Notes under the pieces: generated by a model
Seen by the model: only the letters and a program-made list of their open reading frames with translations
What the model was told of the DNA's origin: nothing
The model's database searches: none
Translations under genes and position numbers: made by a program
Shown here: positions 4,894-21,702 of the stretch, piece by piece
Numbering within the stretch: position 1 is the first letter of the stretch
How the letters are laid out: each line of letters starts with the position of its first letter
IMG/VR virus record: IMGVR_UViG_3300031654_000269
Coordinates: 2,446-66,445 of that record
Strand: one strand, 5' to 3'
From: a virus
Length of the DNA stretch: 64,000 bases

Positions 4894-5784
4894 TTATTTT
4901 CTTCCTTTTTTAAAAGTCATAACTCCTTCAGCATCCTGAACAACCAGGTGAGGGAATTTATTATACTTTGGGTTCTTAGCATCGCTAAGTAAAGTAGCAA
5001 TTCCGGATTTCCCATCAGGTTCTTTTTTCAGGGCTTTTTCAATGAGCTCACTTTTGGTATATTTACCTGATTCGATTAATGGAGTCAAAAATTCAATGCG
5101 GTCTGCTGTGAGTGAACCTCTTTTTTTACTCGAAGTTTTCTTCTCGGATGATCTTCTCTTCGGTTTTTCTTCCTCTTCAGGTTCTTCATCCTTCACTTTG
5201 GCTTTACTTTTCTTCGGAGCAGGTTCATCTTCTTCTTCAAGTAAATCAAGCATGTCAGCCCGCAGGTCTTTCACACCATTCAAACCTTTGTAATCATCCA
5301 GGTCAGGAAGGAGTGATTTGAATTCCTTGTTATCCTCAGCGATGTCCTTCAGCTGATCCAGCTTTTTAGCTGCTTTGATTTGATCAACTAAATCATCATC
5401 CTCAACAACTTCTTCTGGTTCTTCTTCCTCAGGTTCCGGTTCAGGTTTCCTTTTGCTACGAGCAGGTCGTTCTTCAGATTTTTTAGCTGGTGGTTCATCT
5501 TCACCAACGGTGATGTCAAGAACATCCTTCAGTACTTTTACAGCCTTTTTTGAAAATAAATCTGGCTCATCTTCTGCCAGTTCTTCAATAACACCACGGG
5601 CTTTGTCTGTGATATTTTTATCATCATCTTCTTCAAGACTTAAACATTCACAGGCTTCAATAATCTTTTCTTTGATCTCTTCACCATCGGCTTTAAGATC
5701 GATTGCTTGAGGATCATCACTCCCATCTTCAAACAGGAGGTCATTCAAATCCTTTGCACATTTTACTAATTCTGAATTTTTCAT
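4894..5784 (-). CDS. Highly acidic, largely low-complexity protein with a basic C-terminal domain
   Basis: 296 aa with E/D tracts alternating with K/R patches. Confidence 0.75.
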   Translation of the reverse strand: MKNSELVKCAKDLNDLLFEDGSDDPQAIDLKADGEEIKEKIIEACECLSLEEDDDKNITDKARGVIEELAEDEPDLFSKKAVKVLKDVLDITVGEDEPPAKKSEERPARSKRKPEPEPEEEEPEEVVEDDDLVDQIKAAKKLDQLKDIAEDNKEFKSLLPDLDDYKGLNGVKDLRADMLDLLEEEDEPAPKKSKAKVKDEEPEEEEKPKRRSSEKKTSSKKRGSLTADRIEFLTPLIESGKYTKSELIEKALKKEPDGKSGIATLLSDAKNPKYNKFPHLVVQDAEGVMTFKKGRK

Positions 5785-14472: not shown

Positions 14473-14503
14473 TAAAATTATAAAATTATTTTTTAATTCC
14501 TAA
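14473..14503 (-). promoter_or_regulatory. Putative promoter of the SNF2/primase operon
   Basis: TTAG-N19-TAATTTTA on the minus strand. Confidence 0.55.
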
Positions 14504-14886
14504 CGGTGTTTTGTCCGCTTGATTTTTGCATGACGTGTACGAACAATCTTTGTACTAGGTTTCTGTGGTTCATTGAGCTGATCTCTCAGCTCTTTAAATC
14601 GTTCAATGTACTTTATCCGATGACGATTTAATACTGCATAGAAATCTCGGTTGTCTTTTGATTTAGCAAGAAATGGACGTTCAATGATTAAGGTACTGGA
14701 ATCAAATAATTGATGAACGGTTTCCTGTCTCAAACAAAATTCACGTCCATCCTCTCTCACTTCATAAAACATTACTTTACTTCCTACTAAACGGGCTTCC
14801 AAAATAACATCACGGAAATTAGCGATGTATTTGTATTGCCAGTTGGGGATTGCTTTTGCAAGGACATTTTTGTGTATTGATTTCAT
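14500..14886 (-). CDS. Hypothetical early protein
   Basis: 128 aa, preceded by the conserved start-associated repeat. Confidence 0.75.
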   Translation of the reverse strand: MKSIHKNVLAKAIPNWQYKYIANFRDVILEARLVGSKVMFYEVREDGREFCLRQETVHQLFDSSTLIIERPFLAKSKDNRDFYAVLNRHRIKYIERFKELRDQLNEPQKPSTKIVRTRHAKIKRTKHR

Positions 14887-14939
14887 AATTACAACGTTTT
14901 TTATTGGTTAAGAGCAGGAATAAATCCTGCTTTCGGTCA
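14887..14939 (-). repeat. Start-associated repeat / hammerhead substrate half-site (CUC)
   Basis: UGACC GAAA GCAGGA-loop-UCCUGC UC UUAACC AAU AAAAAACGUUG UAAUU AUG. Confidence 0.85.
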
Positions 14940-14940
14940 T

Positions 14941-15348
14941 TTAACTCATATAATTTGGACCTCCTGATTTACCACATTTTGAGCAATGGTAATAAATACA
15001 AGGTCCATTTTCAGCGTCTCCAGTATCTTCAATTTCAAAATCATGTTTGCAGTAATGTTGATTTATTTTAATTGTAATCCAAGATAACGTAGAGATTTTT
15101 GGTAATTTAGTGTATTCTCCGGTTGATTCATCATAATCAATTGAGAAAGCATTTCTGTGTTTCCAAGATTCAAATAAATCAAAACAATTTACAATCCATT
15201 GTGGGAGTAACCAATACTTCTTTCTGCTAAAAATAATGTATTGAGGATATTTCTTATCCTTCTTCCATTTAAAAAGTAGACCACTGTTAGGATTTACTCT
15301 TGATCCGGAAGTTTCTAGACTAAAAAGTCGATTCTTAAATATTAACAT
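14941..15348 (-). CDS. Hypothetical early protein with a C-terminal Cys/His cluster
   Basis: Start reassigned to 15348 (MLIFKNR) directly after a partial repeat; CKH...CSKC. Confidence 0.7.
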   Translation of the reverse strand: MLIFKNRLFSLETSGSRVNPNSGLLFKWKKDKKYPQYIIFSRKKYWLLPQWIVNCFDLFESWKHRNAFSIDYDESTGEYTKLPKISTLSWITIKINQHYCKHDFEIEDTGDAENGPCIYYHCSKCGKSGGPNYMS

Positions 15349-15369
15349 AATTACAACGTTTTTGGTTAA
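15349..15369 (-). repeat. Degenerate start-associated repeat lacking the GAAA hairpin
   Basis: UUAACC AAAAACGUUGUAAUU AUG only. Confidence 0.75.
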
Positions 15370-15484
15370 ACATATAAATAAATGCGTGAGCCTGTTTCCA
15401 GTCCTCTTACGTCTCTCCGGCTCAAGACAGATACCCAACAATTGAACTATCTAGCTCATTCAATTGATACAGGCGTGACCTTTG

Positions 15485-15549
15485 TGGAGCCAACGGATGG
15501 ATTCGAACCATCCTCCCTTATTAGTTCGGGAGTGCCATTTTTCGCTGGC
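15485..15549 (-). ncRNA. D-armless tRNA-like RNA with encoded CCA
   Basis: Acceptor GCCAGCG/CGTTGGC, T arm GATGG-TTCGAAT-CCATC, discriminator T plus CCA, 10-nt D-replacement loop, CTCCC/GGGAG stem with a 10-nt loop. Confidence 0.7.
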
Positions 15550-15562
15550 ATATTTTTTTAAA

Positions 15563-15640
15563 GAGTCCTCAATCTATCTAACCTAAGAGTTAACCCTACA
15601 CGAAAGAAACGAAACCTCCCCTCTTAGAGATTGAGGACTC
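15563..15640. ncRNA. Long hairpin element between early genes
   Basis: 13-bp perfect outer stem gagtcctcaatct/agattgaggactc plus inner ctaagag/ctcttag stem. Confidence 0.55.
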
Positions 15641-15671
15641 ACATTTGTCATAGGATAACGTTGTAATCAAC

Positions 15672-15884
15672 CTATGACGGAGTTGTTTCTTTATGATGAT
15701 GCTTCGTTCTTTTCATTTTAATTATCGCACCATAGCTTGGATTTCTACGGACATTCTTCATATAGCATGGGTAGCATTGATCTGCATCCGGATTCTTGTC
15801 AACCAAATTCTGCTTCAGTGGTTTACCACATGTTTTGCAGTGTTTGTTGCTTAAAATTTTGTAATCGTGTTTTTTGTTTTTCAT
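15672..15884 (-). CDS. Small zinc-finger protein
   Basis: CKTC...CYPC. Confidence 0.7.
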   Translation of the reverse strand: MKNKKHDYKILSNKHCKTCGKPLKQNLVDKNPDADQCYPCYMKNVRRNPSYGAIIKMKRTKHHHKETTPS

Positions 15885-16408
15885 TTTAATAAAGTTAATC
15901 CGTATTTTAATATTTTGATTTGAATCTTTTCTTTATCAGCATCAGCAGCATAAGCAGCAGCAGCATAAGCAGCAGCAGCATAAGCAGCAGCATAAGCATA
16001 AGCAGCATCAGCAGCATAAGCAGCATAAGCAGCATAAGCAGCAGCAGCATCAGCAGCATAAGCAGCAGCAGCATAAGCAGCAGCAGCATTTTTATTCTTA
16101 GTTGATTGTCTATTTAAGTATCTTTCAGCTGCTTCAATAGCTTTCTCTGGTCGATCATCATCAGGATACTTTTTTTGATAAATAGGTAAAACCAATTTTG
16201 CAGCAAATACGGCATATTGTACTCTCTGTTTTTTGTTCATTAATTTTACAATCAACCAATTTGCCCAATCCAAACGGAATCTATTATTAATAGAATAATT
16301 GAGTAATTTAATTGGATTCTCTATTGGATGAGATTTGAACCATTCAATGCCTTCGATACAGGCACCATAGTTACTTAATAAATTAAGAGTGATTTTTTTT
16401 GTCTTCAT
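15881..16408 (-). CDS. Ala/Tyr-repeat protein (Imm5-like DDRPxKAIEAA segment)
   Basis: Start reassigned to 16408 (MKTKKIT) after a repeat; AAAYA tandem block. Confidence 0.75.
   Translation of the reverse strand: MKTKKITLNLLSNYGACIEGIEWFKSHPIENPIKLLNYSINNRFRLDWANWLIVKLMNKKQRVQYAVFAAKLVLPIYQKKYPDDDRPEKAIEAAERYLNRQSTKNKNAAAAYAAAAYAADAAAAYAAYAAYAADAAYAYAAAYAAAAYAAAAYAADADKEKIQIKILKYGLTLLK
15938..16088 (-). repeat. Coding microsatellite of GCT codons interspersed with TAT/GAT
   Basis: About 50 codons of AAAYAAAAYAADAAAAY... Confidence 0.9.
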
Positions 16409-16458
16409 AACAACGTTTTTATTGGTTAATAGCCTGAAATTAATCAGGCTTTCGGTCA
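16409..16458 (-). repeat. Start-associated repeat / hammerhead substrate half-site (CUA)
   Basis: UGACC GAAA GCCUGA-loop-UCAGGC UA UUAACC AAU AAAAACGUUG UU AUG. Confidence 0.85.
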
Positions 16459-16653
16459 TTTCATTGATTCAGGATTTCCATATCCCCAAATTATTTTACC
16501 GGTGAGTTTAATAAACTCCCGTTCAACTTTATCAATCTCATCAGCAGTGACTCTACTGTATCCTTTTGCTCTCATTTCATTTCTGAGATTAGTGTGTTGC
16601 TTGATAAGATTAACAATTTTCTTGTGTTTTTCTACAAATTCTTCATTATTCAT
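16456..16653 (-). CDS. Hypothetical early protein
   Basis: 65 aa between two repeats; its TGA stop is the TGA of TGACC. Confidence 0.75.
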   Translation of the reverse strand: MNNEEFVEKHKKIVNLIKQHTNLRNEMRAKGYSRVTADEIDKVEREFIKLTGKIIWGYGNPESMK

Positions 16654-16704
16654 AACAACGTTTTTATTGGTTAATAGTCCCTTATAAAAAGGGACTTTCG
16701 GTCA
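16654..16704 (-). repeat. Start-associated repeat / hammerhead substrate half-site (CUA)
   Basis: UGACC GAAA GUCCCUU-loop-AAGGGAC UA UUAACC AAU AAAAACGUUG UU AUG. Confidence 0.85.
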
Positions 16705-16929
16705 TTTTAAATAAATAAAATCATATGCATGTTTATTAAGTACAATCTTAGCATTATGAATATTTGATAATGCAATAAATTTAGTAATAGCACTTTCTGA
16801 ATCAAATCCAGATTCTAATACATTTTCATCCTGAGAGATTGAAAAAGTACAATCTGTCATTTTATCAAGATAATAGGTAAGTCCACCTTTCTCGAAAGTA
16901 AAAATAGTAATTTCAGTTTCGTTTTCCAT
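16702..16929 (-). CDS. Hypothetical early protein
   Basis: Start reassigned to 16929 (MENETEI) after a repeat. Confidence 0.75.
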   Translation of the reverse strand: MENETEITIFTFEKGGLTYYLDKMTDCTFSISQDENVLESGFDSESAITKFIALSNIHNAKIVLNKHAYDFIYLK

Positions 16930-16985
16930 AATTACAACGTTTTTATTGGTTAAAATCCTAACCATTAAAGATTAGGATTTCGGTC
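16930..16985 (-). repeat. Start-associated repeat / hammerhead substrate half-site (AUU)
   Basis: GACC GAAA UCCUAA-loop-UUAGGA UU UUAACC AAU AAAAACGUUG UAAUU AUG. Confidence 0.85.
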
Positions 16986-16987
16986 GT

Positions 16988-17233
16988 TTAATACTCATGC
17001 TGAGGATACCTCGTATAAGATAATCCATTTTTTTCCATTGTGAATTGACGATATCCTACTGTAAACCGTTTAAAGTATTCCGTTTTACATTTAGGATCAA
17101 CATCAATTTGCCTAGCCCAAACAGATTCCCCATCCTTTAAAACATTCATAAAACCTTTTATGGTTTTAATGATTTGTCCTTTCAGACTTTTACGTCCTTC
17201 ACATACATCAACAATTTCATATTCTGTTCTCAT
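16988..17233 (-). CDS. Hypothetical early protein
   Basis: Start reassigned to 17233 (MRTEYEI) after a repeat. Confidence 0.75.
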   Translation of the reverse strand: MRTEYEIVDVCEGRKSLKGQIIKTIKGFMNVLKDGESVWARQIDVDPKCKTEYFKRFTVGYRQFTMEKNGLSYTRYPQHEY

Positions 17234-17292
17234 AATACAACGTTTTTTATTGGTTAATACAGTGAGCTTAAAAATACTCACTGTTTCGGTCA
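17234..17292 (-). repeat. Start-associated repeat / hammerhead substrate half-site (GUA)
   Basis: UGACC GAAA CAGUGAG-loop-CUCACUG UA UUAACC AAU AAAAAACGUUG UAUU AUG. Confidence 0.85.
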
Positions 17293-17499
17293 GTTTAAAT
17301 TTGTTCTAATCGTTCCTGTATATCCAAGTCCATGAAAGAACCGGACAAATGAAGAGATGTCTTTTGCAATAATCATCTCACGGGAGACTTTCTTGCTACG
17401 AGAGTTACTCGTTACTACATCAACGAACCATTTGTCAGGATCGGATGTTTCAAATTCTATTGTAGAATTTTTTCTGTGGAGGCTGCCGGGGAATTTCAT
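17290..17499 (-). CDS. Hypothetical early protein
   Basis: 69 aa, ATGA-coupled to the upstream gene. Confidence 0.7.
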   Translation of the reverse strand: MKFPGSLHRKNSTIEFETSDPDKWFVDVVTSNSRSKKVSREMIIAKDISSFVRFFHGLGYTGTIRTNLN

Positions 17500-17870
17500 T
17501 TTTTTAAATCTTTACGAGAATCCTCCCATTGGATTATCCATTGTTTATCTTTAAAAATCCAATAACAATCAGCTATCCTTGTTCCATTAGAACCATCTGT
17601 AATATAATGAAAGGTAAAATTTAATGGAAGCCAGTATTCTTCCATACTTTGAGATAAACCTCCTCCAAAATTGGTTATTTTGAAAGAAGAATAAAAGTTT
17701 TGGAGTACTCCTGTCTGAGCTTTTAGTTCTTGGGAAGATAATTCAATGTATTGTCTTCCATCTCTGTATTGAGATACGTTTGTAGTTAATATCAAATCAA
17801 TTCCAAATTTCTTAGAAATGATTTTCGTTAAACTAGTAAAGTCAAAATCAATCAATTCCAAATTTTTCAT
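17496..17870 (-). CDS. Hypothetical early protein
   Basis: 124 aa directly after a repeat. Confidence 0.75.
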   Translation of the reverse strand: MKNLELIDFDFTSLTKIISKKFGIDLILTTNVSQYRDGRQYIELSSQELKAQTGVLQNFYSSFKITNFGGGLSQSMEEYWLPLNFTFHYITDGSNGTRIADCYWIFKDKQWIIQWEDSRKDLKK

Positions 17871-17924
17871 AACAACGTTTTTATTGGTTAATAGGCCAAG
17901 TAATAATACTTAGCCTTTCGGTCA
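17871..17924 (-). repeat. Start-associated repeat / hammerhead substrate half-site (CUA)
   Basis: UGACC GAAA GGCUAAGUA-loop-UACUUGGCC UA UUAACC AAU AAAAACGUUG UU AUG; one U-G wobble in the stem. Confidence 0.85.
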
Positions 17925-17926
17925 AA

Positions 17927-18226
17927 TTACCATCTTCTTGTTTCGGTAACCTTAACATCCTTTACTCTGAATTCTTCAGGAATGGATACTTTCCATCCTC
18001 CATCATCCTCCCAAGTTACATCATAACCCAAGGCTTCAAGTAATTTTGGTACAGGGTTATCTTTTTCTACACCACTTCCATAAATTACTACTTGATTTTC
18101 TGCTGGATTAAAGAATTCATACAGTTTGTGCATATCACAATTCCTAATTATATGAGCCGGTTTATAAAAATTATTACCTGCTTGATAAATAGGAAATTTT
18201 TTTGATTTCTCAAATGAATTTTTCAT
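17927..18226 (-). CDS. Hypothetical early protein
   Basis: Start reassigned to 18226 (MKNSFEK) after a repeat. Confidence 0.75.
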   Translation of the reverse strand: MKNSFEKSKKFPIYQAGNNFYKPAHIIRNCDMHKLYEFFNPAENQVVIYGSGVEKDNPVPKLLEALGYDVTWEDDGGWKVSIPEEFRVKDVKVTETRRW

Positions 18227-18282
18227 AATTACAACGTTTTTATTGGTTAATAGCAGGATAATAAAAATCCTGCTTTCGGTCA
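18227..18282 (-). repeat. Start-associated repeat / hammerhead substrate half-site (CUA)
   Basis: UGACC GAAA GCAGGAU-loop-AUCCUGC UA UUAACC AAU AAAAACGUUG UAAUU AUG. Confidence 0.85.
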
Positions 18283-18285
18283 CAT

Positions 18286-18507
18286 CTATAACAAATTTAA
18301 TAGGTCTTTATTATTCCTTTGACCCGTTGCAGTTCCCATATGTAGAGTTTTTGCGTGATTTTGTAACTTCTCAAAGCATTCTATTGTATCGGGTGTTTGA
18401 ATTTCAGTCTGTTTTCCACCTATAAAATAAACAAATTCAAAAAATTCTCCGTCAACACTAATAGCTTTTATAGAAGTTTTTCCGGACATAGCTTCAAATT
18501 TTTTCAT
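18286..18507 (-). CDS. Hypothetical early protein
   Basis: 73 aa, first gene downstream of the ribozyme leader. Confidence 0.75.
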   Translation of the reverse strand: MKKFEAMSGKTSIKAISVDGEFFEFVYFIGGKQTEIQTPDTIECFEKLQNHAKTLHMGTATGQRNNKDLLNLL

Positions 18508-18655
18508 AATTACAACGTTTTTTATTGGTTAAGACCCAGCCAACTCGTGACCGGGTTTCAATCTTTATAATGTGCTTACAGCTTAGACCATTCTAAATAA
18601 ATAGAATCTGGACGAATCCAGTCATCAGTTAACCTCACTGTAAGCAAAAAACGTT
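18508..18655 (-). ncRNA. Hammerhead-like ribozyme: catalytic strand plus its proximal cis half-site (GUC)
   Basis: AACGUUUUUU GCUUACAG UGA GGUUAA CUGAUGA [CUGGA UUCG UCCAG][AUUCUA..UAGAAU] GGUCU AAG CUGUAAGC ... AGAUU GAAA CCCGGUCA-loop-UGGCUGGG UC UUAACC AAU AAAAAACGUU. All hammerhead core nucleotides are present, with a non-canonical insertion after A9. Confidence 0.75.
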
Positions 18656-18811
18656 TGAAAAAGAATCTTGGGAGAAGTAATACCTTTTATGTGTTGGTGC
18701 GGTTTCGATGGCCCGGCGTGATTAAATATTAACGGTGGTGCACTGCCGGAAAGGTGAATCGCTGACTTCGATTCTTATTGGTGTCCTTTTTTCGAGCTTC
18801 TCTCTTTCAGA

Positions 18812-18823
18812 ATGTCAATGAAC
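18812..18823 (-). promoter_or_regulatory. boxA-like antitermination element
   Basis: GTTCATTGACAT resembles rrn boxA (GYTCTTTAANA family) and lies in the early leader. Confidence 0.5.
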
Positions 18824-18854
18824 GTGTAGGTAGGAAAATGTTTCGTCTTTTACT

Positions 18855-18927
18855 GCCAATTCCCCGGCTCATTTACGAGTCCGGGGCACACCTGCCGATT
18901 ACTTACGACAGGATTGGCGGCAGGGTG
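18855..18927 (-). ncRNA. GC-rich pseudoknot-like structured element in the early leader
   Basis: CCUGCC/GGCAGG stem; loop GCCAAU is complementary to AUUGGC located after a CCCCGG/CCGGGG hairpin. Confidence 0.5.
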
Positions 18928-19176
18928 TTATTTTACTGCTTTATAAAGTTCTTCAAATATGTTGTAATAAGTTTGTGAAAGACGATAACGAGCTTTTATA
19001 ACTCGTGCCTTTTTGCAGGTAGTAGTGAACCTATCATAAACATTGGTAGTTTCGTTTTGAATACGATTCCAAAAGTTCTGAAGTTCTCTTTTTGAAGAAA
19101 CTTTTTCAGTAGCTTCTGATTTCAAGCAGATTCTGTAATTTCCGCTTTTGAGTTGTTTAAAGTAAATTGTTTTCAT
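18928..19176 (-). CDS. Hypothetical protein, first gene of the leftward early transcript
   Basis: 82 aa basic ORF right after the promoter. Confidence 0.7.
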   Translation of the reverse strand: MKTIYFKQLKSGNYRICLKSEATEKVSSKRELQNFWNRIQNETTNVYDRFTTTCKKARVIKARYRLSQTYYNIFEELYKAVK

Positions 19177-19209
19177 TGTCGTAAGTATTTGTTTGTATTA
19201 ATCAATACG

Positions 19210-19241
19210 TAAATATAGGTATAATGTTTTAAAAAAACAAG
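19210..19241 (-). promoter_or_regulatory. Bacteroidota-type early promoter (leftward)
   Basis: CTTG-N20-TATATTTA, close to the TTTG/TAnnTTTG consensus. Confidence 0.6.
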
Positions 19242-19319
19242 ACTTTTTAAATTTATTTTTTAAAAAAACGCCTTTTTTTATATAAATCAGCTGTTTATTG
19301 AAAAATAATTCAAATAAAA

Positions 19320-19351
19320 CTAGGATTAAATGATACAAATTTATAAATTTT
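19320..19351 (+). promoter_or_regulatory. Putative rightward (packaging/structural) promoter
   Basis: CTAG-N20-TAAATTTT in the divergent AT-rich intergenic region. Confidence 0.45.
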
Positions 19352-19386
19352 ACTCCATAGATCAAATTACTGACTAAAAAGGAGGG

Positions 19387-19602
19387 ATGGAAATAGCATT
19401 AATCATATTAGGGAGCTGTATTTTGTTATTTATCTGTAACTGGATTTATTATGCAATTGCTATTATCCGGAGTAGAAAGAAAATCAGAAATCTACGAGAG
19501 GAATTTAACGGATATTTGAGTGGAGATATGGATGCTAACGTTCACAAATATGTCAAACGATTTCCTGAATCAGAACTTGCAAAACTCATGAGAAAAAACT
19601 AA
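19387..19602 (+). CDS. Small membrane protein
   Basis: N-terminal TM helix; AGGAGG upstream. Confidence 0.7.
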   Translation: MEIALIILGSCILLFICNWIYYAIAIIRSRKKIRNLREEFNGYLSGDMDANVHKYVKRFPESELAKLMRKN

Positions 19603-19610
19603 GTTAAAAA

Positions 19611-20162
19611 ATGATACGTACCCGTAAAAGAAAAGTCAGACCTGATACATATAGAAAACCAGGACGAAAGGGAGTATATGATTCAACTACTCCTGAACGT
19701 GCGATTTGGCTTATGGCACGTGGACTTACAGAAAAAGATTTAGCAGTAGCATTTGGAGTAAATGTAACTACAATTGAGCGATGGCAACGTGATCTTCCAG
19801 AATTTAGTGAGGCCATGCAAAAAGGTAAAAAGCAGGCAGATGAAAATGTAGTAAAATCTTTATACAAGAGTGCAATGGGATACTCTCATCGTGATATTAA
19901 AATCGTATCAACTAAAGATGGAGTATTGACAATCCCTATTTTAAAACACTATCCACCTGATGTGACGGCTTGTATATTCTGGCTTAAAAATCGTCAACGT
20001 GAAGATTGGGCTGACGTACAAAAATTTGAGAGTACTGCAAATATGAATATAAATGTTAATGGAAAACTTGACTTATCAATACTTTCAGGAGAGGAACAGA
20101 GATTAATAAAATCAATAGCTATTAAACGATTAAAATCAATAGAAGGTGTCAGACACAATTGA
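19611..20162 (+). CDS. terS: Terminase small subunit
   Basis: HTH (GLTEKDLAVAFGVNVTTIERW), PPDVTACIFWLKNR; directly upstream of the large subunit. Confidence 0.88.
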   Translation: MIRTRKRKVRPDTYRKPGRKGVYDSTTPERAIWLMARGLTEKDLAVAFGVNVTTIERWQRDLPEFSEAMQKGKKQADENVVKSLYKSAMGYSHRDIKIVSTKDGVLTIPILKHYPPDVTACIFWLKNRQREDWADVQKFESTANMNINVNGKLDLSILSGEEQRLIKSIAIKRLKSIEGVRHN

Positions 20163-21702
20163 TACATTAATACTTGATAAAAAGTCTCAGGAAGTCATTT
20201 CTCAAGCTATAAATGACCCGGTAGATGCTATCCGTTCCCTCGGAGGATTAGATTTTTATGAATTCTTACAAGTATTTTGGGAACAGATAACTTTGGATGA
20301 ATTTGTAGATAATTGGCACATACCTATGTTATGTAATGAATTACAAACGTTAGCAGAAAGAGTGGCAAAGAAACAACCTAAAGAATACGATTTAATAGTA
20401 AATATCCCTCCAGGTACAACTAAAACAATAATATGTTTAATTGCGTTTCCAGCTTGGGCATGGACTAAGTGGTATTGGATGCAATTTATAGCAGCGTCAC
20501 ATAGTATGCCTATTGCTTTAAAGAGTGCAACTAAGTGTAGGGACTTAGTACGGTCGGATAAGTATAAGATGATATATCCATGGTTGGACATAAAGGCGGA
20601 TGAGGATACCAAGTCAGATTTTAGGGTTGTAAAAAAGACGTATGTCAAAGCTGGCCATGTACCACGAATATCTATTGGGGGTGGACGGTTTACTTGTTCA
20701 GTAGGAGGTTCAGTAACAGGGATGCATGGTCATATTGTATTAATTGATGACCCAATTGACCCTCGAAAAGCTATTAGTGATGCAGAGATTGAATCTGCTA
20801 ATCATTGGATGGATGAAACGATACCAACACGTAAGGTTAATAAGGAAGTTACTCCCACTGTTTTGATAATGCAACGTCTTCATCAGAATGATCCTTCCGG
20901 ACATCTATTAGAAAAGAAAGAGAAACGGATTCGGCATATATGTCTACCGGGAGAAATTGTTAATTACAATAAATACATACAACCAAAAGAATTTAAAGAA
21001 TATTATAAAAATGGATTATTGGATCCAACACGTATGTCATGGACTGTGTTAAAGGACATGGAAATTGATATGGGACAATACGGTTTCGCCGGTCAGGTTG
21101 GACAGAATCCAACTCCACCAGGTGGAGGTATGTTTAAAGTTGATCATTTCCAGATGATTCAAACAATGATTCCTGAAGTGAGTATAATGCAAACGATTCG
21201 ATATTGGGATAAAGCAGCTACAGATGAAGCTGAATTGAAAAAGGGAAGAGATGCAGCATATACCGTTGGAGTGAAAATGATACTGACAGATCGTGGAAAA
21301 TATATTGTTGCCGATGTAAAACGAGGACGGTGGGAAACAAACGAACGGGAAAGGATCATACGAGAGACTGCTGAAGTGGATGGACAGAAAGTATTAGTTA
21401 TGACAGAACAGGAACCAGGGTCAGGTGGGAAAGATAGTGTACGATCAACAATTACTAACCTGGCCGGATATCATTGTGAAGGAGACCCCGTGTCGGGGAA
21501 AGGAAGTAAACCAATTCGAGCAGATATATATAGTGTACAGGTAAATAATGGTAATGTGTTATTGTTGTCAGGGGATTGGAACCGGGAGTTTGTGGAGGAG
21601 CACCGGTTCTTTCCTTTTTCTAAGTACAAGGATCAGGTTGATGCCGCTGCCGGTGCATTTAATAAATTGACGAAGAAGAAACAAGTTAAAATATACACAT
21701 AA
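20146..21702 (+). CDS. terL: Terminase large subunit
   Basis: NIPPGTTKT, LIDDPID, IMQRLH, RYWDKA, EQEPGSGGK, DQVDA. Confidence 0.95.
   Translation: MSDTIDTLILDKKSQEVISQAINDPVDAIRSLGGLDFYEFLQVFWEQITLDEFVDNWHIPMLCNELQTLAERVAKKQPKEYDLIVNIPPGTTKTIICLIAFPAWAWTKWYWMQFIAASHSMPIALKSATKCRDLVRSDKYKMIYPWLDIKADEDTKSDFRVVKKTYVKAGHVPRISIGGGRFTCSVGGSVTGMHGHIVLIDDPIDPRKAISDAEIESANHWMDETIPTRKVNKEVTPTVLIMQRLHQNDPSGHLLEKKEKRIRHICLPGEIVNYNKYIQPKEFKEYYKNGLLDPTRMSWTVLKDMEIDMGQYGFAGQVGQNPTPPGGGMFKVDHFQMIQTMIPEVSIMQTIRYWDKAATDEAELKKGRDAAYTVGVKMILTDRGKYIVADVKRGRWETNERERIIRETAEVDGQKVLVMTEQEPGSGGKDSVRSTITNLAGYHCEGDPVSGKGSKPIRADIYSVQVNNGNVLLLSGDWNREFVEEHRFFPFSKYKDQVDAAAGAFNKLTKKKQVKIYT

Follow-up and report, generated by a model that had tools for sequence, protein, structure and literature searches.

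A putative split hammerhead ribozyme in a phage operon, with one catalytic strand, eight substrate half-sites and a weakened stem II at the enzyme-proximal site

Comparative analysis of a 64,000-nucleotide stretch of viral DNA (the window; positions 2,446 to 66,445 of IMG/VR record IMGVR_UViG_3300031654_000269) points to a hammerhead ribozyme that is divided between one enzyme strand in the leader of an operon and eight substrate half-sites. Comparison with related sequences gives good support to the reading as a split hammerhead with a shared enzyme. At the half-site adjacent to the enzyme (proximal site), stem II is weaker than at the seven distal half-sites, and the best available explanation of this weakness is a cleave-then-exchange mechanism, in which the leader would cleave itself and then exchange its own half for a distal one. 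We consider this explanation plausible, with a probability of roughly one half. The genome of the source phage is complete and comprises 66,445 bases (66.4 kb) with direct terminal repeats.

All split-hammerhead features of the window are located on the minus strand. The motif GACCGAAA was found there in seven copies, none on the other strand, between 14931 and 18281 (shuffle control: mean of 1.46, with 0/100 shuffles reaching 7). Eight exact minus-strand copies of TAACCAATAAAA were identified at the seven distal sites and at 18520-18531; with up to one mismatch allowed, nine matches were obtained versus 1.85 expected, a number that was reached by none of 100 shuffles. A hairpin and then TAACCAATAAAA come after every copy of GACCGAAA, and a pattern with fixed spacing misses the half-sites because the hairpin lengths vary. 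The seven distal sites are all intergenic and consist of GACC-GAAA, a site-specific hairpin, U-H and then UUAACCAAUAAAA:

18233..18281, minus strand: distal half-site 1, GACC-GAAA, 8-bp stem III, UA and UUAACC; predicted cleavage after 18251
17874..17923, minus strand: distal half-site 2, 10-bp stem III, UA; predicted cleavage after 17892
17239..17291, minus strand: distal half-site 3, 9-bp stem III, UA; predicted cleavage after 17258
16936..16985, minus strand: distal half-site 4, 9-bp stem III, UU; predicted cleavage after 16954
16657..16703, minus strand: distal half-site 5, 8-bp stem III, UA; predicted cleavage after 16675
16412..16457, minus strand: distal half-site 6, 7-bp stem III, UA; predicted cleavage after 16430
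14893..14938, minus strand: distal half-site 7, 7-bp stem III, UC; predicted cleavage after 14912

With the proximal site included, eight elements can be aligned from the 3' strand of stem II through GAAA, a hairpin of 7 to 10 bp and U-H to UUAACC-AAU-A5-6CGUUGU; after CGUUGU, 2 to 5 more bases precede the AUG of the next small gene. The stem III hairpins of the window are eight distinct ones of 7 to 10 bp, the sequence of each being unique to its site, and H17 reads C, A, A, A, U, A, A and C from the proximal site to distal site 7. G12-A13-A14 and the A15.1-U16.1 pair were present at 8/8 sites of the window and at 21/21 sites across the three split phages found (see below). All 21 half-sites have GAAA, a stem III of at least 7 bp with varying sequence, and an H17 that is never G. 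The distance from enzyme to site ranges from 0.1 to 3.7 kb on one strand within one apparent transcription unit, whose small genes for the most part match no known family; the array is followed by an SNF2 helicase gene, and one of the operon's genes is Imm5-like. A near-identical copy of distal half-site 7 is located on the metagenome fragment L021. Terminator-plus-promoter cassettes were ruled out as an interpretation of the repeats, with no U-tract after the hairpins and only ~25 nt from hairpin to AUG.

In other runs from this habitat type, contigs fuse half-sites with each other (16665/17281, 16933/17872 and 16953/17281), skipping 327 to 938 bases, each fusion being seen in single low-depth DNA contigs. 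The one from 16665 to 17281 carries a different stem III in which base pairing is retained. Given these joins from half-site to half-site, gene cassettes seem to be gained and lost by recombination at the half-sites. The Imm5-like protein (15881-16408, minus strand; Pfam PF21805, E 2e-7) has a long tandem repeat rich in Ala and Tyr at ~15940-16090, where contigs of other runs exhibited a very high, heterogeneous depth and 3-base indels; both probably stem from unrelated low-complexity sequence. A spurious Rfam match to isrG originates in the same stretch. Inside the array, 15350-15672 (minus strand) is a non-coding segment of 320 nt that is strongly structured (z = -3.6; an equally good fold in 0/100 shuffles). 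At ~15484-15517 it has a T-arm and an acceptor end with CCA that resemble those of a tRNA, although ARAGORN calls no tRNA there, and its ends pair over ~11 bp, a 5' anti-start-region sequence pairing with the conserved 3' ACGUUGUAAU. The segment ends in an incomplete repeat (UUAACC, outer arm and AUG; 15347-15374) that lacks GACC-GAAA and stem III, and may represent a different processing signal at one junction.

The enzyme strand comprises, in this order, an outer stem I arm, PK1, GGUUAA, CUGAUGA, a 32-nt insert, GGUCU and PK2, followed by the proximal half-site:

18646..18655, minus strand: 5' strand of outer stem I in the leader (AACGUUUUUU), complementary to A5-6CGUU after UUAACCAAU at all 8 sites
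18637..18645, minus strand: PK1 (GCUUACAGU), pairs with PK2 in loop II as a closing or pseudoknot helix that ties together the ends of stems I and II
18629..18634, minus strand: 5' strand of stem I, GGUUAA, complementary to UUAACC at all 8 sites
18622..18628, minus strand: 5' strand of the core from C3 to A9, CUGAUGA, directly after GGUUAA
18590..18621, minus strand: 32-nt insertion with two hairpins between A9 and G10.1
18585..18589, minus strand: 5' strand of stem II, GGUCU, common to all sites
18574..18582, minus strand: PK2 (GCUGUAAGC), inside loop II
18560..18564, minus strand: 3' strand of the proximal stem II, AGAUU, with two G.U and three Watson-Crick pairs to GGUCU
18533..18559, minus strand: proximal G12-A13-A14, 9-bp stem III, U16.1 and C17; predicted scissile bond between 18533 and 18532
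18508..18532, minus strand: 3' strand of the proximal stem I (UUAACC), AAU and 3' strand of outer stem I, ending right before the AUG at 18507

Within the proximal site, GAAA occupies 18559-18556, stem III 18556-18534 and UUAACC 18532-18527; U16.1 is at 18534, C17 at 18533, and the cleavage triplet is GUC. An earlier note on this DNA had described two G.U pairs between AGAUU and GGUCU and a GUC triplet in 18508-18589, and had placed the cis cleavage at 18533/18532; its observation proved to be correct at these coordinates. It had not mentioned the 32-nt insertion at 18621-18590. GGUUAA-CUGAUGA at 18622-18634 is a single copy in the whole 66,445-base genome, and GGUUAACUGANGA has one occurrence genome-wide. 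CTGATGA alone occurs at chance level (13 found versus 11.5 expected), the copy at 18622 being the only one preceded by GGUUAA. Distal sites with cores of their own were ruled out: the CTGATGA copies of the operon at 16158 and 16538 have no GGUUAA before and no GGUC after them.

A DNA contig of a related strain over 18519-18846 showed changes confined to 18700-18742, plus the loss of one A at 18518 (single low-depth contig). Between an 82-aa open reading frame and the hammerhead leader lie ~270 nt of non-coding sequence (18656-18927, minus strand), for which no Rfam family was found, the only match being an insignificant one to DUF2693-RNA (17 bits, E 6.7). The stretch 18508-18930 holds several stable hairpins and has a G+C content of 43%, versus 35% in the window as a whole. 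Upstream of the leader, all three split phages have a T/A-rich stretch ending in (T)TTACGTA, located in the window at ~19195-19240 before the 82-aa open reading frame; the operon may have its promoter or transcription start here.

Viral, metagenome and genome collections were scanned for the repeat. The scan identified about twenty loci with complete elements just before genes, which read AAGGUUAA-CUGANGA-GGUC-UNAAU-GACC-GAAA-stem III-UH-UUAACCAAUAAAA, with UNAAU as the loop; of 82 metagenome and 36 genome pattern matches, most were chance matches without stem III. The seven distal elements of the window correspond to this complete element minus everything 5' of GACC. Since these relatives carry complete hammerheads before genes, and their stems I and II are the same as in the window, the window sites are best read as 5'-truncated hammerhead halves, and the comparison traced them to a family of phage hammerheads whose members are normally self-contained. 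In alignments to two Rfam models, RAGATH-1 hammerhead and HH9, the complete element of locus L008 covers all core positions, although both scores are below threshold (21.6 bits versus a cut-off of 56.3, and 17.4 versus 52, respectively). In the whole window no Rfam family was matched at the gathering threshold, and the absence of a hammerhead match is expected for an element that is split. Searches of 14500-20500 and 18490-18680 at E values up to 10 returned no hammerhead, but only insignificant matches such as those to isrG (low-complexity repeat) and FopS.

In the self-contained clusters the number of cores equals that of sites (6/6 in L018, 4/4 in L081, 3/3 in both L066 and L012), and stem II varies from copy to copy within a cluster, with five different sequences among the six copies of L018. 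About ten different stem II sequences were found among the self-contained relatives, and stem I of L149 is GACUAA/UUAGUC. Stems I and II are invariant within and between the three split phages, covariation of these stems being confined to the self-contained relatives; the pairing of stems I and II in the split phages rests on homology with the self-contained family and not on covariation within the split group. Comparison with both the split phages and the self-contained relatives supported the stem II pairing between enzyme and site that the earlier note had claimed.

The two other split phages are represented by L064, an 11.4-kb metagenome contig with one leader (GGUUAA-CUGACGA-GGUC, no insertion) and nine half-sites, and by L133, from a 70.9-kb viral genome (97% complete) with one leader and four half-sites. 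A uniform scan of all fetched loci gave ratios of sites to cores of 8/1 for the window, 9/1 for L064 and 4/1 for L133. Both share genes with the window (SNF2 helicases, 48% identical; 81-aa protein, 58% identical), and the sample of three split lineages, all that were found, is small and its members are mutually related. Blastn of the operon against GenBank phages gave no match, and neither the SNF2 protein alone, compared with viral contigs, nor an alignment of the 81-aa protein revealed a close relative. The 80 loci obtained from the SNF2 alignment included no split array and one locus (L149) with two complete hammerheads; a scan with the leader signature returned only L133 and self-contained clusters. 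In L133, ~200 nt of G+C-richer sequence with a D-arm-like motif (~5195-5400) follow distal site 1 and replace the usual A-rich run and AUG; ARAGORN found no tRNA in this stretch, and no tRNA genes were found in the window, L133, L064, L010 or L018.

The leader carries two further helices. PK1 lies shortly before GGUUAA, and PK2 shortly after GGUCU in loop II. The helix that they form has 9 bp in the window, where it joins 18645-18637 to 18582-18574 and is present in the minimum-free-energy fold; its length is 6 bp in L064 and 10 bp in L133, and the three sequences are unrelated. The order of GGUCU, linker and PK2 is kept in L064 and L133. PK1/PK2 forms a topological pseudoknot across stems I and II and thus provides a tertiary contact between these stems; a Watson-Crick pseudoknot contact of this kind commonly stabilizes active hammerheads, as far as described by Perreault et al. 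2011 (PMC3088659). Since both PK strands are on the enzyme, the latter would form a closed unit whose loop exposes GGUUAA, the core and GGUC. The second helix, outer stem I, is formed between leader and site. Its cognate duplex energy was -7.5 kcal/mol in the window and -8.5 kcal/mol in L064, versus -1.1 to -3.5 kcal/mol for non-cognate combinations (-1.8 and -1.1 kcal/mol for the window leader with the flanks of sites from the other two phages). Shuffled leaders equaled outer stem I in 8/500 cases for the window and in 1/500 for L064. In L133 this helix is absent, 354/500 shuffles doing as well. Sequence comparison thus showed covariation of the PK1/PK2 helix in all three phages and of the outer stem I helix between leader and site in two. 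Cofolding of enzyme and site, with a program that forbids pseudoknots, recovered PK1/PK2 and outer stem I but not stems I and II, which cross the PK1/PK2 helix.

At the distal sites, the stem II strand is GACC in 17/18 cases across the three split phages, the exception being a GACU in L064. Such constancy is expected if a single GGUC has to serve as the pairing partner of every distal site. GGUC and GACC form four Watson-Crick pairs, and the earlier claim that this holds for all seven distal repeats of the window, with GACC before GAAA, was borne out by the aligned minus-strand sites. At the proximal site of the window, the pairs between GGUCU and AGAUU are, in order, G.U, G.U, U-A, C-G and U-A. 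Forced-duplex energies of stem II were as follows:

Distal sites, GACC: four Watson-Crick pairs with GGUC, -3.8 kcal/mol
Window proximal site, AGAUU: G.U, G.U and three Watson-Crick pairs, -1.3 kcal/mol
L064 proximal site, GAAC: G.A mismatch at 10.2/11.2, -0.4 kcal/mol
L133 proximal site, GACU: G.U at 10.1/11.1, -2.1 kcal/mol

Among 41 distinct cis hammerheads from all loci, 33 had four Watson-Crick pairs in stem II directly and six more had them when one extra U at A9/G10.1 was allowed; the two with an imperfect stem II were the proximal sites of L064 and L133. With the window included, a fully Watson-Crick stem II was thus found at 0/3 proximal sites versus 39/39 distinct self-contained relatives (Fisher p = 8.7e-5, which overstates independence because the sequences are related). 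The weak proximal stem II noted earlier for the window accordingly recurred in 3/3 split phages through different substitutions, next to 17/18 perfect distal and 39/39 perfect self-contained sites, and the comparison showed a degraded stem II at the proximal half of every split phage found. Its description as wobble-preserving applies to the window and L133 but not to L064 with its G.A mismatch. Because the proximal substitutions differ (GAUU, GAAC, GACU), at least two separate weakening events have to be assumed. All three proximal sites keep GAAA, a stem III of 7 to 9 bp, U-H and UUAACC, the degradation being confined to stem II positions 11.1 and 11.2, and in all three phages the proximal strand is tethered to the pseudoknot by an A/U-rich single strand of 9 to 13 nt.

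The enzyme of the window differs from those of L064 and L133, in which A9 directly adjoins G10.1, by the 32-nt insertion, which forms a 5-bp stem with a UUCG loop plus a 6-bp stem. A9 and G10.1 are therefore 32 nt apart (18621-18590), and with these 32 nt between CUGAUGA and GGUC the hammerhead core of the window is not contiguous. One extra U at A9/G10.1, with an otherwise perfect 4-bp stem II, was found in 6/39 distinct self-contained relatives (L010, L012, L040, L066, L081), which argues that the phage hammerhead family tolerates insertion at this junction; besides the window, no precedent was found for a natural hammerhead with more than 1 nt inserted there. Judging from the sequence, the insertion may lower or abolish activity in the window phage, so that its enzyme could be slow or dead. 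The second hairpin of the insertion (18589-18608) resembles 16703-16722, directly before GACC of distal site 5, at 18/20 positions, the two differences being compensatory and turning a C-G pair of the stem into U-A. This likeness may be a trace of the origin of the insertion, or chance in A/T-rich sequence.

In the proposed cleave-then-exchange mechanism, the leader would fold with its own half and self-cleave between 18533 and 18532, upon which the 3' product, the mRNA of the first gene, would depart. The leftover cis GAAA and stem III would then be held only by a stem II of ~1.3 kcal/mol on the flexible A/U-rich tether, and distal sites, offering the full GACC together with 6 and ~9-10 bp of stem I, would outcompete and displace it. 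One enzyme RNA could in this way cut the polycistronic transcript into single-gene mRNAs, each cut leaving an upstream mRNA that would end in the stem III hairpin and a downstream mRNA that would begin ~25 nt before its AUG. As the 3' product would be paired through ~16 bp (6 plus 9-10), slow unassisted release is predicted, and turnover would need ribosomes or helicases. That a hairpin-closed leader module frees itself via a deliberately weak built-in substrate and then cuts seven further half-sites is an idea that we put forward tentatively, at somewhat less than even odds.

The main rival of this mechanism is neutral relaxation: the weak proximal stem II might have arisen in an otherwise identical shared-enzyme split hammerhead, with no role in a hand-over. 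A half that is tethered and held by PK1/PK2 would need less of stem II, which would lead one to expect a weak cis stem II just as much, whereas the untethered distal halves would be selected for GACC. The proximal substitutions are indeed of different kinds (window, two G.U; L064, one G.A; L133, one G.U), which looks more like drift than like a fixed design, and the 39/39 perfect relatives have loops of 4 to 6 nt without a pseudoknot helix and are therefore an imperfect control. Such relaxation nevertheless seems less likely than the exchange, since the three proximal sites are otherwise intact and their decay is restricted to positions 11.1 and 11.2, and since a pseudoknot borne by the enzyme should stabilize the distal complexes too, of which 17/18 are yet perfect. 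A further reading sees the weak proximal stem II as a kinetic delay: self-release would be slowed, and the enzyme would cut distal sites in cis, at long range, before or instead of its own. Enzyme and sites on the same strand of one apparent transcription unit, at distances within 0.1 to 3.7 kb, would suit this reading, as would the ratio of one enzyme to eight sites, which favors intramolecular action, and a discontinuous hammerhead within one mRNA is known from Clec2 (as covered in the reviews PMC6765202 and PMC6155905). We regard it as improbable, because the proximal site is transcribed first and tethered and should still fold first, and because the conserved, pseudoknot-closed enzyme module resembles a self-sufficient unit; the sequence gives no indication of the order of events.

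Lowest in our estimate, and quite doubtful, stands an inactive ribozyme in the window phage, with the enzyme killed by the 32-nt insertion or the repeats repurposed, be it that the leader acts as antisense to translation starts, that the repeats are sites for a protein RNase, or that they are recombination boundaries for gene cassettes. Compatible with this are the insertion at A9/G10.1 and the failure of Rfam to find a hammerhead, the outer arm covering the bases right before each AUG, and the contigs of related strains that join half-sites (16665 to 17281), which suggest that the repeats act as cassette boundaries. Every core nucleotide is, however, intact at 8/8 sites and in the leader, an invariant distal GACC is required by neither an antisense nor a recombination role, and 6/39 otherwise canonical relatives have 1 nt inserted at that very junction. 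The spacing from hairpin to AUG is moreover too short for a promoter, and the hairpins lack a U-tract.

Perreault et al. 2011 (PMC3088659) described clustered complete hammerheads on the flanks of small phage genes and showed that they cleave. The split system resembles these phage and prophage clusters, as presented there, in its core, its position before small genes of unknown function and its use of a pseudoknot, and the role proposed for them, the cutting of long phage transcripts into gene-length mRNAs, is the same. Sister elements of the window (L008-L010, L018, L054, L081 and others) share its stem I and stem II sequences. CUGANGA is present at every site of the clusters described in PMC3088659, whereas 7/8 sites of the window lack it and one leader copy would serve all; other differences from the published clusters are the distal stem II frozen at GACC and the pseudoknot that lies wholly within the enzyme strand. 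Mammalian Clec2 3' UTRs harbor a discontinuous hammerhead (Martick et al. 2008, as summarized in the reviews PMC6765202 and PMC6155905), in which, as in the window, enzyme and substrate parts are far apart in the same transcript. According to these reviews, one enzyme part per substrate part and a long stem I insertion are found in Clec2, whereas the window, a phage sequence, has one enzyme part and eight halves. The distal sites do not conform to the Clec2 type of one enzyme and one substrate part with an insertion in stem I, as stems I and II are both open.

A third comparison is with engineered trans-cleaving hammerheads that have short binding arms; the first trans format is illustrated in Figure 1F of PMC6155905. 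The phage enzyme resembles such engineered forms in that the CUGANGA strand would recognize its target, which carries the cleavage site, via two short arms, here of 6 and 4 bp. It differs from them in being natural, in a substrate that supplies GAAA and stem III, in arms closed by a helix and in a built-in cis copy of the substrate. In the literature searched, no account was found of a natural hammerhead in which several half-sites depend on one catalytic strand. As far as we know, small self-cleaving ribozymes in nature are self-contained units that turn over once. Genomic trans-cleaving ribozymes are, in the account of a 2019 review (PMC6765202), still being searched for.

If the proposed reading is true, the phages would possess a natural multi-target hammerhead with one catalytic strand per 4 to 9 substrate halves. 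It might possibly be the first natural small ribozyme built for several targets, with one RNA in control of how the transcripts of eight genes are processed and perhaps also translated, a suggestion that the sequence comparison allows us to make with some reserve. The weakened cis half leads to the prediction that a stronger proximal stem II should trap the enzyme, and the system would offer a natural design for short-armed, pseudoknot-clamped trans ribozymes. The finding is of high interest for ribozyme biology. It would give phage hammerhead clusters a concrete biological role, and the processing of an early operon, all dependent on one RNA, would constitute a single control point.
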